Notes under the pieces: model-generated | What the model saw: the letters and a program-made list of their open reading frames with translations, nothing else | Told to the model about the DNA's origin: nothing | Database searches by the model: none | Program-made: the position numbers and the translations under genes | In this document: positions 3,121 to 24,580 of the stretch, one piece after another | How the letters are laid out: every line of letters starts with the position of its first letter | How positions within the stretch are numbered: position 1 is the stretch's first letter | Origin: Thermodesulfobacteriota bacterium | GTDB lineage: Bacteria > Desulfobacterota > Desulfobulbia > Desulfobulbales > SURF-16 | DNA length: 25,476 nt | Reading direction: 5' to 3' | Assembly (NCBI GenBank): GCA_040755455.1 | Contig: JBFMAY010000049.1 | Span: 1 to 25,476, forward strand

Positions 3121-3496
3121 ATGATTGCGCCATCTTGATTGCGAACTTGAATCAATAGCCAGCGGTTCCCCCATTATAATCGCAATATCGGTTACCGATA
3201 AAAATTATTTTAGCGCTCCATTTTATTTACAGAAGAAACAAACACGGGAAAGCTATCACATCGCCACACAGGTCAAAAGCTGCGGGCAAAACGACCAGTG
3301 TAGCCGAAACCGGCAGCAAATCCTTTGCCTGAACATGGAAGAAAGCTTGCAGTGATACGGGAATTAGTGTAAAAAAGGCAGTAATTTTCAGCGGAAATAA
3401 AGGCGCATTACTTTTATAACATCCGGCCTCCAGTAACAGTCGGCAACAACTCAATCAATATGCCGACCAGCAGACAGCTGGGAATATATCCCAAAA

Positions 3497-3572
3497 GCCC
3501 TCGTAGCTCAGTGGATAGAGCACAGGATTCCTAATCCTGGTGCCGCAGGTTCGATTCCTGCCGGGGGCACCA
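3497..3572 (+). tRNA. tRNA-Arg(CCT)
   Basis: 76-nt cloverleaf: GCCCTCG/CGGGGGC acceptor stem, AGTGGATA D-loop, CAGGA-TTCCTAA-TCCTG anticodon arm (CCT at 3530-3532), GCAGG-TTCGATT-CCTGC T arm, encoded CCA. Confidence 0.97.
3527..3572 (+). repeat. attL core (3' half of tRNA-Arg)
   Basis: 46-bp direct repeat with 5852-5897, one mismatch (G3560/A5885). Confidence 0.92.
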
Positions 3573-3620
3573 ATAATTTCAATTAGTTACATCATCACTA
3601 TAAGTGCGCCTTTGGACAAT

Positions 3621-3654
3621 TGGGTACGATTTTGGAACGATTTCCGTACCGAAA
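3621..3654 (+). repeat. GGGTACG repeat block, copy 1 (candidate integrase arm-type sites)
   Basis: TGGGTACGATTTTGGAACGATTTCCGTACCGAAA; 32/34 identical to 4607-4640. Confidence 0.85.
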
Positions 3655-3687
3655 AGCACCAGGATTTTTAGTTCTGGTGCTTTTTTT
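3652..3687. terminator. Bidirectional intrinsic terminator-like hairpin (unit 1)
   Basis: AAAAGCACCAGGA-TTTTTAG-TTCTGGTGCTTTTTTT, with A and T tracts on both sides. Confidence 0.75.
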
Positions 3688-3688
3688 A

Positions 3689-3834
3689 TGGCAGGGCAAG
3701 GATTTGCACCTTGCATGACAAGCGATTTGCTCCTACTCCCCTACTTGGATGACCTTCGGGTTTTGCATACGGCTTTTTGTCATCATTGAGAGCTTGCCTT
3801 CCCAGTTCATGCGTCTACCTATTCCGCACCTGCC
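3689..3834 (-). ncRNA. tRNA-like ncRNA with a ~90-nt insert replacing the anticodon arm (possibly skipping-rope motif class)
   Basis: Minus strand: GGCAGG-T-GCGGAATAGGTAGACGC-ATGA...TCAT-G-CAAGG-TGCAAAT-CCTTG-CCCTGCC-A, giving acceptor-, D- and T-like arms, followed directly by the terminator. Confidence 0.72.
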
Positions 3835-3846
3835 TCAAATTATATT

Positions 3847-4077
3847 TTATTCCAATTCCTTAACAACACAGCTTTCTGTCTCTGTATCAACAATTACTGT
3901 CAAATACTCACCATACTCAAACCATTTCCCACATAATTCCATAATACTTTCTTTTCTCTTTTTCTTGATAACCTCTATTTCTTCTTCGTTGACACCGCTT
4001 ACCTGTAGTTCTTCAAGGGCGTAGTCAATGGCATCATATAAAACATCGGGGTCTTTTAATGTGATTTCAATTTTCAT
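3847..4077 (-). CDS. Small acidic hypothetical protein, phage-like (76 aa)
   Basis: Clean ATG ORF directly downstream of the conserved TTGACA promoter. Confidence 0.75.
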   Translation of the reverse strand: MKIEITLKDPDVLYDAIDYALEELQVSGVNEEEIEVIKKKRKESIMELCGKWFEYGEYLTVIVDTETESCVVKELE

Positions 4078-4086
4078 AAATTTTTA

Positions 4087-4143
4087 TTTAATAATTATAT
4101 CTTTATGGTAGCATACTCCTACTAACTGTCAATGTGGACAACT
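4087..4143 (-). promoter_or_regulatory. Conserved 57-bp block, copy 1: DnaA-box-like TTGTCCACA, TTGACA-N16-TACCAT with extended -10 TG
   Basis: 52/57 identical to 4925-4981. Confidence 0.8.
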
Positions 4144-4159
4144 TTTGAGGAGAAGAGAA

Positions 4160-4603
4160 ATGAAAAGGAGATCGTTTTTTGTTTTTTTGATTGCTTTTGT
4201 GTTTGGTTTTTGTGTTTCCCAAATTAAAGATGCAAATGCCTCGGTCAGTGAGAAAGAGGCAATATCAAATTCGTCTTATTGGGGATTTATAAAAAACTAT
4301 GATAAGAAAAAATATGACAGTGAAAAAACAAGAGGCCTGACTGTGTTCCATGAGGTTGTTTATACAACTGGCAATGTAAGAAACCTAACTATCGTTTATG
4401 ATGAGATTTGGGAAGCGGATGACGCAGCATTTTTAACACCTGCTGAGATTCAAAAATATAAAAACGATTTGAATCATATAAAAATCTATTGGAAAAATGA
4501 CAAAGTTCAAGCTTATGTCATCGAAAGAAAATACACATCGACAGGAGCCCATGAGGTTACAGACATTTTTGATAGAGCCTATATTTTAAAAAATATGCGA
4601 TAA
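4160..4603 (+). CDS. Secreted hypothetical protein (147 aa)
   Basis: GAGGAG RBS, ATG 4160; MKRRSFF-hydrophobic-ANA signal peptide; stop codon lies 1 bp before repeat block 2. Confidence 0.8.
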   Translation: MKRRSFFVFLIAFVFGFCVSQIKDANASVSEKEAISNSSYWGFIKNYDKKKYDSEKTRGLTVFHEVVYTTGNVRNLTIVYDEIWEADDAAFLTPAEIQKYKNDLNHIKIYWKNDKVQAYVIERKYTSTGAHEVTDIFDRAYILKNMR

Positions 4604-4604
4604 C

Positions 4605-4640
4605 TCTGGGTACGATTTGGGTACGATTTCCGTACCGAAA
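4605..4640 (+). repeat. GGGTACG repeat block, copy 2 (junction between units)
   Basis: TCTGGGTACGATTTGGGTACGATTTCCGTACCGAAA; first 21 nt identical to copy 3, 3' part identical to copy 1. Confidence 0.88.
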
Positions 4641-4641
4641 C

Positions 4642-4681
4642 AAAAAAAAGAGCACAGGATTCCAAGTTCTGTTCTCTTTTT
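4642..4681. terminator. Bidirectional terminator-like hairpin (unit 2)
   Basis: AAAAAAAAGAGCACAGGA-TTCCAAG-TTCTGTTCTCTTTTT. Confidence 0.7.
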
Positions 4682-4738
4682 CATTTTGTTTTTCTATGTC
4701 GGCAAAATACTGGGTATATCAACGTGTCTACCCATTTC

Positions 4739-4915
4739 TTATGCAAGGTATTCCCTTATTTCTTCAAGCACACCACTAATTTCGTAAAACACTTTTGCTG
4801 GTTCATCGCCATACCCAAAGCTAACAATAAACCCGTTAGACGCTTTATTTACTGTAACACTTGTTCTTTTTGGCTTAGATTCAGCTAAGCCTGTTGTGGT
4901 AGTATCTTCTCCCAT
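4739..4915 (-). CDS. 58-aa hypothetical protein (absent from the ORF track)
   Basis: Hand translation MGEDTTTTGLAESKPKRTSVTVNKASNGFIVSFGYGDEPAKVFYEISGVLEEIREYLA*; ATG at the same distance from the conserved promoter as the unit-1 ORF. Confidence 0.7.
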   Translation of the reverse strand: MGEDTTTTGLAESKPKRTSVTVNKASNGFIVSFGYGDEPAKVFYEISGVLEEIREYLA

Positions 4916-4924
4916 ATTTTTTTC

Positions 4925-4981
4925 TTTAATAATTATACATTTATGATAGCATACTCCTATTAACTGTCAATGTGGATAACT
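4925..4981 (-). promoter_or_regulatory. Conserved 57-bp block, copy 2: perfect DnaA box TTATCCACA, TTGACA-N16-TATCAT with extended -10 TG
   Basis: 52/57 identical to 4087-4143. Confidence 0.8.
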
Positions 4982-4992
4982 GGAGAGTACAC

Positions 4993-5235
4993 ATGGATAG
5001 CAAAACATGGAAAATAGTTGCTGCTACTTGCACCGTTATAGGTTTGTTTCTTGGTTTTTTAGAATTATATTTCCGACCAAGTGTGCTTTTGTTGGAAAAT
5101 TCTAAAACTTATCCTGATTGGGCAAAATGGTTCAGGCTTGTGATGACGTCAGTAGCCCCAATTGCATACATTATTTTGGATGTTTTTGAGCACAAAAAAT
5201 CTAAAAAAAATAAACAGATTTCTGATAATCAATGA
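4993..5235 (+). CDS. Small two-TM membrane protein (80 aa), paralog A
   Basis: GGAGAG RBS before ATG 4993; two hydrophobic segments; shares APIAYIIxDVFEHKK with the next ORF. Confidence 0.8.
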   Translation: MDSKTWKIVAATCTVIGLFLGFLELYFRPSVLLLENSKTYPDWAKWFRLVMTSVAPIAYIILDVFEHKKSKKNKQISDNQ

Positions 5236-5471
5236 CCAAACGAGACCTGAAAATTATAACTGGGACACTAACTGTTGTCGGAATTATAATGGCAGTCTTG
5301 GAGCAATATTTTGCACCTGATTATTTAACATTCGGAAGTTCCCCGTTGGGTAAACCTTGGTTTATTTGGTTAAAACTGGCAATAACTTCTCTCGCCCCTA
5401 TCGCATATATTATCGTAGATGTTTTTGAGCATAAAAAAGGCAATATGGAGAAACGACATGAAAAGTACTGA
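5232..5471 (+). CDS. Small two-TM membrane protein (79 aa), paralog B
   Basis: ATGA overlap with paralog A; collinear similarity over its whole length. Confidence 0.8.
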   Translation: MTKRDLKIITGTLTVVGIIMAVLEQYFAPDYLTFGSSPLGKPWFIWLKLAITSLAPIAYIIVDVFEHKKGNMEKRHEKY

Positions 5472-5712
5472 ACAGGTTATGCCTGTCATCAAAAAAATCT
5501 ATGAAGAAAAATTACACAAAAATCAAAACGAGATTATCAAGTTAATAATTGACAAGAATCATAACTATATCGTTTTAAAAGATGACTGGAAAACGACAAT
5601 CCTAAGAAAAGACATTGATGATTACTTTGACCCACAAAAGGAAACAAAACAGAAAAGAGCTGCAGAACTCAAAATCATTCACGCCCTAGAAAACTTCGAG
5701 AAGATAGATTAG
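5458..5712 (+). CDS. Hypothetical soluble protein (84 aa)
   Basis: GGAG RBS, ATG 5458; TAG stop directly abuts repeat block 3. Confidence 0.7.
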   Translation: MKSTEQVMPVIKKIYEEKLHKNQNEIIKLIIDKNHNYIVLKDDWKTTILRKDIDDYFDPQKETKQKRAAELKIIHALENFEKID

Positions 5713-5733
5713 TCTGGGTACGATTTGGGTACG
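5713..5733 (+). repeat. GGGTACG repeat block, copy 3
   Basis: TCTGGGTACGATTTGGGTACG, identical to 4605-4625. Confidence 0.88.
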
Positions 5734-5851
5734 GAAAAGTTGGGAAACTATCGAAAATGAGGAAAAACAAGGGAAAGATTAGAAAGGAATTTTTATAATA
5801 TTTTTAATCATTTAAACGATTTTAGATAGTTACAAAAAAGGGTTAGTGGGA

Positions 5852-5897
5852 ATTCCTAATCCTGGTGCCGCAGGTTCGATTCCTACCGGGGGCACCA
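5852..5897 (+). repeat. attR core (duplicated tRNA-Arg 3' half)
   Basis: ATTCCTAATCCTGGTGCCGCAGGTTCGATTCCTACCGGGGGCACCA; starts just before the anticodon loop. Confidence 0.92.
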
Positions 5898-5903
5898 AAA
5901 AAC

Positions 5904-5955
5904 AATAAGGGACTTGCAAGCGAAATCAGCTTGTTGGTCCTTTATTTTGTTTTTT
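5904..5955 (+). terminator. Probable original tRNA terminator, now after attR
   Basis: AATAAGGGAC..CAAGC-loop-GCTTG..GTCCTTTATT hairpin followed by a T-rich tract. Confidence 0.55.
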
Positions 5956-22997: not shown

Positions 22998-23873
22998 TTA
23001 TATTACTTTATTAAAGTCCACTTGATAGCCCACTGCCCTCAGTTCCTTTGCTAGATCAATCTGCCAACTTCCTGTATCCATAGAAGTGTACACAATGTCT
23101 GCAATATCATTTGGTGTTTCGACTTGTCCTTTTACCAGCGGGCAAACTCTGGAGCGCCCCAATTTCCCGATAAGAAACCCGTGTTCAAAAACAACGTTTT
23201 GCCTTGCTCTACCTTTCAAATCAGGGGGTGTTGTGGTGTTTATTGCACCAATATCGCAAGGTGTATAAATGACAATACCGAACCCTACATTTGAATATGA
23301 TTCGATTTTTTCTATTATTGTTCTACTTCCACTTGCTTGCTCATGTAAGATGATCGGCTCAAACCCTATTTTTTCAACAAACCTCGCGACTTCAAGCTTT
23401 GCAGATTCGTCGCGCCCATGAACAATAAAAATTTGATTCTCATTGAGAGTGTTAGATGGTTGAGCAGACACAAAGCCACTATTTTGTAAATTTTTCACAG
23501 GAATGAGCTCTAAACGTTCGATTATTGACTCCAACCTATGATTTTTTGTGTCTATTTTTTCATAAAATTCTTCCACTTCCTCACGAAGATGTTTCTGTTG
23601 AAACACCAAAACGGGTACTCCAACTAATGAACTGTATTGCTGGCACAGTTCTTCCGATGAAAACAATCGTTTTAGCAGCTCTTTGTTGAAATCGTCCCAC
23701 TTGTCATATTGTTTTTCTGAGTCATCAAGTTCACGGGCCGTATTTATCGCCTTTTTCCTTATTTCTTTCCCCTTCGCGATCCTTTCATTGAGCTTTGTTT
23801 CTGCTTCATTTCGCTCAACTAGCAGCTCCAATGGTATCTTTGGTTCAGGAGGGTTTGTACGTTTTCTAGCCAT
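22998..23873 (-). CDS. TIR-like nucleotide-binding domain protein (Cap12/Pycsar-type TIR) with N-terminal helical region
   Basis: IFIVHGRD, PIILHEQ, TIIEKIE and RARQNVVFEHG motifs; AT-rich; GGAG RBS. Confidence 0.88.
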   Translation of the reverse strand: MARKRTNPPEPKIPLELLVERNEAETKLNERIAKGKEIRKKAINTARELDDSEKQYDKWDDFNKELLKRLFSSEELCQQYSSLVGVPVLVFQQKHLREEVEEFYEKIDTKNHRLESIIERLELIPVKNLQNSGFVSAQPSNTLNENQIFIVHGRDESAKLEVARFVEKIGFEPIILHEQASGSRTIIEKIESYSNVGFGIVIYTPCDIGAINTTTPPDLKGRARQNVVFEHGFLIGKLGRSRVCPLVKGQVETPNDIADIVYTSMDTGSWQIDLAKELRAVGYQVDFNKVI

Positions 23874-23911
23874 GTTTGCTCCGATAATATGAAGGGCTTA
23901 TCAGTGTTTAC

Positions 23912-24076
23912 TAAGTGGAAATTTTCCATAATATCAACTCATATAGACGGACAAATTTTCCACTTATTTCAATATTAAGGCTAAAATATGGACAAAAACC
24001 CCTTTTTTTGTCCACTTATTACATTTCGTTGTGCTGGTTTCCACTTATTGCGATATTACAGGCAAAATATGGAAAA
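23912..24076. repeat. Array of TCCACTTA/TCCATA half-sites in direct and inverted orientation (res-site- or operator-like)
   Basis: TCCACTTATT at 23959, 24011 and 24040; TAAGTGGA at 23912; AATATGGA at 23985 and 24066. Confidence 0.6.
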
Positions 24077-24580
24077 CATGGAGAAGCCAGCCATAATACT
24101 GACCTGTCTGGCAGCAAGGAAGTTCAGCCCTTGATTTCCTGGCCCCTTTGCCACCCTTTCTCTCTGCCCCATTTTCCCATGGGAATCAAATAGCTGCCCA
24201 TAAAAAGCCAAACTCTAATTCATAAATTTTGCAAGAAAAAAAACTACTAAAGGATGACAGGGCGATAAAAAAGACAAACCGGCGGTATTCGATATCGCCC
24301 TTCAGTTTCCCGCCATGACTCAGGCACCATCAGCAGGAGATCCCGGCAAATGCCTGCCCCCACGCAGAGAAACCTTTCCTTAAACCTGCCAAGAACGATT
24401 CCGCACAGACAAAAAACACCAAGAAAATCATGCTTGCAATGCTCGATTTTCATGGCATCATATTGCCATGATCCTGTGAACCTCCTTCCTCGGACGCGGC
24501 ACAGCGCGGCGATGTTTGTTTCCCCCCGCAAGTTCAAGATAGGCCGCAACGTTGATGGAGCCAAAAAACATGCAGCCATT

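Follow-up and report, generated by a model that had tools for sequence, protein, structure and literature searches.

An integrase-less islet in a tRNA-Arg(CCT) gene carries two hairpins that resemble the anticodon arm, possible attachment-site relics turned into terminators

Introduction

The stretch of DNA described here (the window, 25,476 nucleotides in all) covers positions 1 to 25,476 of contig JBFMAY010000049.1 in GenBank assembly GCA_040755455.1, from a Thermodesulfobacteriota bacterium. A tRNA-Arg(CCT) gene in this window is followed by an islet of 2279 nt (2.28 kb) with a GC content of 35%, bounded by a direct repeat of the 3' part of the tRNA gene. Inside the islet, two related cassette units lie one behind the other, each containing a block of short repeats followed by a hairpin (hairpins A and B) that resembles the anticodon arm of the target tRNA. 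An earlier inspection of the letters alone (the sequence-only reading) had proposed that these apparent terminators may also act as integrase core-type sites, serving for cargo capture, as decoys or as RNA mimics of the anticodon loop. The present analysis leads to a different account, to which we assign a probability of roughly 0.55: the islet would be a decayed tandem array of the cis-mobilizable element (CIME) type, and its hairpins would be relics of the attachment (att) core that were turned into bidirectional terminators.

An insertion centred on the anticodon

The anticodon arm of tRNA-Arg(CCT), CAGGA-TTCCTAA-TCCTG, occupies positions 3523-3539 (the features of the locus are collected in Table 1). 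The islet is bounded by a 50-nt direct repeat, the left copy of which consists of the final 46 nt of the tRNA gene and 4 flanking bases. Since this repeat starts 1 base 5' of the anticodon loop, the att site is anticodon-centred. The arrangement is that of an island in a tRNA gene, with a rebuilt gene on one side and a displaced fragment in direct orientation on the other. Between the repeat copies, the GC content is 0.32-0.36, compared with 0.55-0.67 in the flanks. Three relatives (G008 of the same genus, G016 and G023) have an empty site, in which the tRNA gene is followed directly by a hairpin of the native terminator's type. The direct repeat and these empty sites together identify the 2.28 kb as an anticodon-centred insertion, which pushed the native 3' fragment of the tRNA gene and the native terminator to the right, so that the terminator now lies 2.3 kb from the gene. 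No integrase gene was found within the islet, whose six small open reading frames (ORFs) have no Pfam match; the genome (assembly 91.8% complete) has 10 matches to the integrase family PF00589, none of them on this contig.

Two hairpins resemble the anticodon arm of the target tRNA

The cores of the two hairpins, CAGGA-TTTTTAG-TTCTG in A (3660-3676) and CAGGA-TTCCAAG-TTCTG in B (4655-4671), share the form CAGGA-N7-TYCTG with the tRNA arm, and all three strings are present as the sequence-only reading had quoted them. Also exact are the two longer matches to which it had drawn attention: a 15-nt run common to hairpin B (4649-4663) and the tRNA gene (3517-3531), and an 11-nt minus-strand match in which 3656-3666, in hairpin A, is the reverse complement of tRNA positions 3533-3543. 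Overall, hairpin B (4649-4671) is identical to tRNA positions 3517-3539 at 20 of 23 positions, and hairpin A (3655-3680) agrees with the tRNA arm at 21 of 26 positions with one gap.

Such a likeness is far beyond expectation. On both strands of the 3.98-Mb genome, CAGGA-N7-TYCTG has 29 matches against ~16 expected, and within the 2279-nt insert it has two, where 0.004 would be expected from base composition and ~0.017 from the genome-wide density. Aligned locally with the insert, the tRNA gene scored 31 (hairpin B) and 25 (hairpin A). Among 500 dinucleotide shuffles of the insert, none reached 31, four reached 25 as their best score and none had a second score of at least 25; a check on both strands likewise gave 0 of 500 at a score of at least 31. 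The resemblance of the hairpins to the tRNA is real and not due to chance.

The 7-nt loops read TTTTTAG in A, TTCCAAG in B and TTCCTAA in the tRNA, which amounts to three differences between A and the tRNA, two between B and the tRNA, and three between A and B. In hairpins A and B alike, the AATCCTG of the tRNA has become AGTTCTG in the 3' half, and this shared derived state marks them as paralogues. The tRNA arm's 5' half is kept by hairpin B (15 of 15 positions) and its 3' flank, GGTGC, by hairpin A; combining the two yields an ancestor that matched the tRNA at ~26 of 28 positions (a count taken from the alignments). From this we infer that the ancestor of A and B would have been a copy of the att core, its bacterial-side half included.

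Repeat blocks define two cassette units

Hairpins A and B each adjoin a repeat block, as the sequence-only reading had it: the blocks at 3621-3654 and 4607-4640, which are 94% alike, precede A and B, respectively. A third block, block C, starts 138 nt before the right att copy. The 11-nt unit GGTACGATTT (at most one mismatch) has five occurrences in the insert and one in the rest of the window, the expected number being 1.0, and none of 100 shuffles reached six; the longer pattern of a repeat block is found at three places in the whole genome, all within the insert.

Block B is a chimera of the other two. Its left part (4605-4625) equals 5713-5733 of block C at 21 of 21 positions, which takes in the left flank and the first 19 nt. 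The left flank matches block C at 6 of 8 positions and block A at 1 of 8, whereas over the following 15 nt the agreement is 15 of 15 with block A and 3 of 15 with block C. We read block B as the apparent junction of the two cassette units. No internal tRNA fragment was found between the units, and the chimeric block stands in its place. Judging from this composition, the chimera probably arose by deletion of an internal att copy between arm repeats: recombination of the P-arm block of the left unit with the P'-arm block of the right unit would remove the tRNA fragment from an internal P-core-P' junction. The same product would result from unequal crossing-over of two elements that occupy the same site. 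Mapped against the 7-nt loop, as the sequence-only reading had suggested, the unit boundary falls not there but in repeat block B.

In unit 1, a 48-nt spacer leads to block A and hairpin A, which are followed by the 76-aa minus-strand ORF, a promoter block and the 147-aa plus-strand ORF. In unit 2, block B and hairpin B are followed by the 58-aa minus-strand ORF, a promoter block, three small ORFs on the plus strand and block C. Between the units, the promoter blocks are 88-90% identical, and both contain near-consensus minus-strand promoters with an extended -10 element; the cargo genes of unit 1 and those of unit 2 are not related. Having kept attL and attR and lost its recombination genes, the islet is in the condition that characterizes a CIME.

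Table 1. Features of the tRNA-Arg(CCT) locus, with positions in the window
Feature	Position	Strand	Remarks
tRNA-Arg(CCT) gene, rebuilt target (attL)	3497..3572	+	ARAGORN; Rfam tRNA 71.2 bits
Left copy of the 50-nt direct repeat	3527..3576	+	96% identity to 5852-5901
Repeat block A	3621..3654	+	two direct 11-nt units and one inverted; 48 nt behind the tRNA; candidate arm-type (P') sites
Hairpin A	3656..3688		between the tRNA (+) and the 76-aa gene (-); A run before, T7 after
76-aa ORF	3847..4077	-	small conserved phage family; motifs KDPD, KWFEYGEYLTV
Promoter and 5' leader block, unit 1	4075..4143		minus-strand TTGACA, 16-nt spacer, TG-extended -10
147-aa ORF	4160..4603	+	signal-peptide-like N-terminus; no Pfam match
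Repeat block B	4605..4640	+	chimera: left part as block C, right part as block A
Hairpin B	4649..4696		between the convergent 147-aa (+) and 58-aa (-) ORFs; A8 before, T-rich tails after
58-aa ORF	4739..4915	-	no family match
Promoter and 5' leader block, unit 2	4913..4981		11/12 promoter match with TG
Three small ORFs (4993-5235, 5232-5471, 5458-5712)	4993..5712	+
Repeat block C	5713..5737	+	two direct units, no inverted unit, no hairpin; candidate P-arm sites
Displaced tRNA 3' fragment (attR)	5852..5901	+	one mismatch vs 3527-3576, in the T stem
Native tRNA terminator	5903..5950	+	homologous to the tRNA-adjacent hairpin in G008, G016 and G023; -22.4 kcal/mol

Hairpin folding and terminator setting

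By the earlier division of its letters, hairpin A has a 10-bp stem and a 7-nt loop; its predicted fold has 11 bp and a 3-nt loop. The RNA folding energy of hairpin A is -15.3 kcal/mol on the plus strand and -10.3 kcal/mol on the minus strand, that of hairpin B -9.8 kcal/mol on the plus strand, and the fold z-scores of the two hairpin regions are -4.0 and -3.4. Hairpin A is followed by T7 on the plus strand and T4 on the minus strand; hairpin B is followed by CTTTTTC and further T runs on the plus strand and by T8 on the minus strand. Both display what is asked of an intrinsic terminator, a stable stem-loop with a U tract directly after the stem. These A and T runs, together with a position between convergent genes, lead us to read A and B as candidate bidirectional terminators. 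With the native terminator 2.3 kb away, hairpin A becomes the first predicted terminator behind tRNA-Arg(CCT).

The two hairpins improved on the tRNA palindrome in different ways. The extended palindrome of the tRNA gene contains a bulge and folds at -10.9 kcal/mol. Hairpin A lost this bulge through a C inserted on the 5' strand, and in hairpin B the 3' flank was rewritten so that it pairs with the unchanged 5' strand. The outer stem positions thus differ between A and B, yet they are paired in both, a pattern of selection on a folded hairpin rather than on a protein half-site.

Two observations concern the surroundings of hairpin A. The 165-nt stretch from the hairpin to the stop codon of the 76-aa gene (3682-3846) looks GC-richer by eye than the remainder of the islet and lacks a convincing ORF; it may be the remnant of a gene, a small RNA or a long 3' untranslated region. 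Positions 3316-3331, upstream of the tRNA gene, and 3692-3707 form a 16-nt inverted repeat (14 of 16 positions) that is likely due to chance.

The same tRNA gene in related genomes

The loci downstream of tRNA-Arg(CCT) were compared in nine relatives. Besides the three empty sites, two genomes (G005 and G006) have a different element, three have unrelated sequence, and the module of block and hairpin is found in G004 alone, a genome of the same genus. Here two direct units, TGGCTACGATTTGGCTACGAT, lie 46 nt behind the homologous tRNA gene, against 48 nt in the window; the sequence of the spacer is unrelated to that in the window and its length nearly equal. Both G004 units are changed alike at one base (GGGTACG to GGCTACG). 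The nearly equal spacer length and the concerted change of the units are as would be expected of arm-type sites whose distance from the core is fixed.

After the G004 repeat units comes a sequence that is 19/22 identical to hairpin A and has the same TTTTTAG loop. Its alignment score with hairpin A is reached by 1 of 1000 shuffles, and its score of 19 with the tRNA arm by 20 of 1000. The 3' half of this copy overlaps the end of an open frame, a possible constraint on its sequence. The G004 contig (C490) ends 180 nt further on, and no continuing contig was found. A pattern search on G004 with an ill-suited pattern returned 16 matches compared with 7 in the control, which is noise. At locus L006 of G004 (1548-1592), a hairpin behind the tRNA has the stem of the native terminator, as seen in four related genomes, with an unrelated 12-nt loop; this hairpin may be the G004 element's own imitation of the terminator of the host.

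At the loci with the different element or with unrelated sequence, no copy of the anticodon arm was recognized: scores were 12-13 in G005 and G006, which have no copy, and the best scores in the three unrelated loci were 12-14, none of them convincing. The first ~250 nt behind the tRNA at L007 (G005) and L013 (G006) contain a terminator of their own and two direct ATTACGCC repeats, and the ORF that starts at these repeats looks by eye like an integrase gene. The tRNA-Arg(CCT) gene is an integration hot spot in this genus.

Locus L158 (G004:C116, 1900-3397) holds a second tRNA-Arg(CCT) gene of 77 nt with different acceptor and T stems, which has tyrosine-recombinase-like frames on both sides and a terminator whose loop also contains TTTTTAG. 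This gene may come from another organism; the contamination of G004 is 7%.

Origin of the hairpins

In the account that we prefer, the integrase-less islet in the anticodon-loop region would represent two related cassette units in tandem. The tRNA-side start of each unit would be a P'-arm module, in which an 11-nt-periodic block of probable integrase arm-type sites is followed by a hairpin. Hairpins A and B would be paralogous copies of one ancestor, itself a near-exact copy of ~28 nt of the anticodon arm, the att core. Each copy would then have been given a stronger stem, with A and T runs on its flanks, to yield a bidirectional intrinsic terminator. Hairpin A would substitute for the displaced native terminator of the tRNA and also stop the convergent 76-aa gene, and hairpin B would separate the convergent genes of units 1 and 2.

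Several findings weigh against this account. On the minus strand, hairpin B folds weakly (-4.8 kcal/mol), and a rule-based scan of the window for consensus terminators listed neither hairpin; our guess is that the scan passed over A because its stem can extend into the flanking A/T runs, and over B because it has a C-T mismatch and few G-C pairs. The G004 copy folds at -1.9 kcal/mol, with no stable hairpin and no T run, which means that sequence, not terminator structure, was conserved across the two species. The consensus MCAGRA fits 8 of 8 half-sites in the tRNA, A, B and G004 and would suit a protein-binding site as well. Moreover, the shared derived states conflict, with TTCTG uniting A and B and the loop and an inserted base uniting A and the G004 copy, so that some homoplasy or gene conversion must be assumed. 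The comparison comprises three copies in two genomes. As to conservation of the motif beyond the needs of base pairing, which the sequence-only reading had put up for testing, G004 keeps the sequence without a stable fold, and the outer stems of A and B differ and still pair.

The unfolded G004 copy and the uniform half-sites are what would be expected if the hairpin sequence were a working protein-binding site of the P' arm, a core-type-like pseudo-attB, with any terminator role secondary. Such a site would be bound by the cognate integrase or an excision factor and would have a role in intasome architecture, regulation or sequestration. In the same direction point the conservation of the hairpin sequence in two species beside a 46-48-nt spacer that is unrelated, and the joint change of the G004 repeat units, as with a co-evolving binding protein. 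The 7-nt loop between palindromic stems also fits the layout of an overlap and its core sites in tyrosine-integrase sites, as described in PMC8371274, which defines the overlap. However, the distance between block and hairpin varies, B having a 9-base insert relative to A and G004 lacking ~13 bases; the covariation of the outer stems of A and B is that of a folded hairpin; three copies of shared ancestry cannot separate constraint from recent common descent; and the 3' half in G004 overlaps a possible coding end. On balance, we consider a binding site unlikely. The earlier proposal of integrase core-type sites survives in its likeness to the att core and in its geometry (7 nt between inverted half-sites), and falls short in the identity of the overlap, in a recombination partner and in an integrase.

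A bolder extension, which we regard as quite improbable, is that a family of tRNA-Arg(CCT)-targeting elements would carry, beside the arm-type repeats, a minimal pseudo-attB in the form of an anticodon-arm copy with an altered overlap, bound by the integrase, at which integrase-less 1-kb cassettes with promoters of their own dock and accumulate behind the tRNA while the sites double as terminators. If true, a heterobivalent phage-type integrase would here support a cassette platform like that of an integron.

Tyrosine recombinases need identical overlaps. Under this rule, and given the differences between the loops, no productive recombination would be expected between the tRNA, A and B. This bears on the suggestion that A and B serve as active secondary att sites whose overlaps are heterospecific, and that ~1-kb cassettes would be captured or exchanged through them in the manner of an integron. 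The units are indeed modular, with a shared promoter block and end module around unrelated cargo, and the hairpins have a core-like geometry and lie at the unit boundaries. Yet each loop departs from that of the tRNA, and the two from one another, at 2-3 of 7 positions, and neither has an identical partner in the genome: a second copy of hairpin A or B was not found in the genome, nor, in the 91.8%-complete assembly, a further repeat block or a cognate integrase. The left and right halves of each hairpin are co-adapted and are therefore not those of recent recombinant hybrids; the unit junction is a chimera within a repeat block, not within a loop; the direct repeat attests to use of the tRNA core by the whole islet; and the contig has no integrase. 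Contigs from public sequencing runs had no informative joints, a weak point given their sparse cover. From the sequences, then, active secondary att sites are the less likely reading, and cargo capture through them has a slim chance at best.

A third possibility, very remote in our estimation, is that the hairpin RNA imitates the anticodon stem-loop at the 3' ends of transcripts and acts as a decoy for an anticodon nuclease or a tRNA-modifying enzyme. In every copy, the loop has T, T and A at the positions that correspond to tRNA 32, 33 and 37, with variation at the three 'anticodon' positions; in transcripts, the hairpins would form the 3' ends of the tRNA precursor and the cassette mRNAs; and the cargo includes a phage-family gene. 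Against such mimicry, the predicted folds shrink the loop to 3 nt by U-G and U-A pairs, the G004 copy is not stably folded, the loop substitutions are few and their pattern fits drift, and no nuclease or defence gene was recognized in the islet with Pfam or PHROGs. Mere coincidence of two ordinary terminators with a tRNA stem-loop, both being short GC-containing hairpins with small loops, is hardly credible in view of the 15-nt exact identity, the absence of shuffles at a score of 31 or with a second score of at least 25 (0/500 each), the two motif matches against ~0.004-0.017 expected, and the same sequence behind the same tRNA in G004.

Cargo genes

A search with the 76-aa protein gave 28 proteins at E <= 0.01 among 31 candidates, and the family alignment contains 27 proteins, the weakest (62 aa) having been dropped. 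Loci with relatives number 2 in genomes, 44 in viral contigs and 163 in metagenome stretches; of the last, 80 were kept, and 126 loci in total were compared. The relatives sit among phage early or replication genes, not beside integrases. Fourteen of the 54 neighbouring ORFs that were scanned (of 84 listed) have Pfam matches, which include DnaB, SSB, YqaJ, methylase, YopX, HNH, Cpn10 and others, and no integrase was found among them. An AlphaFold model of the 76-aa protein, with a predicted local distance difference test (pLDDT) score of 86, had no match in the PDB at E <= 0.001.

The 147-aa ORF matched itself alone among 19 candidates. The ORFs at 4993-5235 and 5232-5471 are overlapping paralogues of 80 and 79 aa (75% over 72 nt); by eye, both have the look of proteins with two transmembrane segments, and both contain the C-terminal motif DVFEHKK. 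None of the three small ORFs of 4993-5712 had a Pfam or PHROG match better than E = 0.013.

Searches for relatives of the islet

Of 41 genomes, including its own, 32 were matched by the islet DNA; outside its own genome, the matches correspond to the tRNA 3' copy, save one 38-nt match (E 6.9e-4). The exact repeat-block patterns had no match in viral contigs or genome contigs. A looser block pattern matched 8 of 401 genomes of the order, the real cases being G004 and the islet's own genome; the other six matches have no tRNA nearby and fall in gene-like sequence. Hairpins A and B and the G004 copy served to build a covariance model, which, when run on 40 genomes of the family, returned only its training sequences and one match at E = 0.07; this match has no tRNA at its locus and looks like coding sequence. 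The hairpin pattern had five matches in viral contigs, all at the end of one conserved sequence from a single sample that was judged to be coding.

A pattern of the tRNA 3' half matched a single viral contig (L160), which has no repeat blocks. Its minus strand at 2480-2540 contains a tRNA-Arg(CCT)-like att segment in which the identity extends from CAGGA, the 5' strand of the anticodon stem, to CCA; by its layout, this segment is a textbook anticodon-centred attP or att junction. A blastn comparison of the islet with the 126 loci that have relatives of the 76-aa gene matched the gene itself and never the hairpins or blocks; the closest of these loci, L061, is an unrelated phage fragment. Two public DNA runs, with sparse cover, yielded three contigs of 151 nt that match exactly, along with fragments of tRNAs from other organisms. 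Two apparent 'joints' in these runs have foreign letters between short sides and were not taken as evidence of excision.

Elsewhere in the window, GC content drops to 0.35-0.40 at 23000-24250 and 1-500, the rest of the contig being at 0.55-0.67. The first of these stretches contains a 291-aa minus-strand ORF (22998-23873), and both may be other foreign inserts.

Comparison with known systems

Anticodon-centred (class A) sites for tyrosine integrases in tRNA genes were reportedly described by Williams in 2002. Like such sites, the islet is bounded by a rebuilt tRNA gene and a displaced 3' fragment, and its repeat begins at the anticodon loop; unlike them, it has extra copies of the anticodon arm within its own arm and lacks an integrase gene. 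A rebuilt tDNA with a displaced fragment is also the island layout in the Islander database paper (PMC4383910). Because the islet has no integrase gene, Islander's filters would reject it.

CIMEs, as outlined in PMC5704250 (citing Pavlovic 2004 and Bellanger 2011), are decayed elements that lack an integrase, keep their att sites and accrete in tandem. The islet resembles them in retaining attL and attR without integration genes and in having two related units at one tRNA gene. It departs from them in that its units measure ~1.0-1.2 kb, its internal att site is replaced by a chimeric block, and its cargo is phage-type rather than conjugative.

The repeat blocks have their counterparts in the arm sites of lambda Int and of KplE1 IntS, which acts at argW: as in PMC2951348, the direct repeats lie one helical turn apart. 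The spacing is also comparable, with the P' blocks 46-48 nt from the tRNA end and the P block ~115-138 nt from the core, and the sequence of the candidate repeats changes in concert between the window element and G004. KplE1 differs in using the 3' end of argW (PMC2951348), whereas the islet uses the anticodon loop. No core-like copy immediately next to arm sites was found in the literature searched. With bidirectional intrinsic terminators, the hairpins share an A run upstream, a T run downstream and a place between convergent genes; they stand apart in deriving, by our account, from a tRNA anticodon arm and in having escaped the consensus scan.

Integron cassettes provide a further parallel, since the cassettes of the islet are small, modular and each marked by an imperfect hairpin at one end. 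In contrast to integrons, the array has no IntI-type integrase near it (the contig contains no tyrosine recombinase), the cassettes carry promoters of their own, and the array is bounded by tRNA att repeats. Conserved end motifs like those of attC were not seen in the cassettes, which were inspected without a formal attC model.

Islands in tRNA genes are textbook material. Outside the usual description fall a mini-array of ~1-kb cassette units without an integrase, and arm modules that would hold a second copy of the att core, turned into a replacement terminator for the tRNA; in the open-access literature searched, no anticodon-arm copy inside an att arm, and no terminator derived from one, was found. 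If the hairpins are relics only, they would illustrate the reuse of att DNA as a terminator and two independent routes to perfecting one imperfect palindrome. If they are bound by an integrase, attachment-site architecture would gain a new element and cassette accretion a possible route. In either case, pipelines for island finding that require an integrase gene and a tRNA fragment for each unit miss arrays of this kind.

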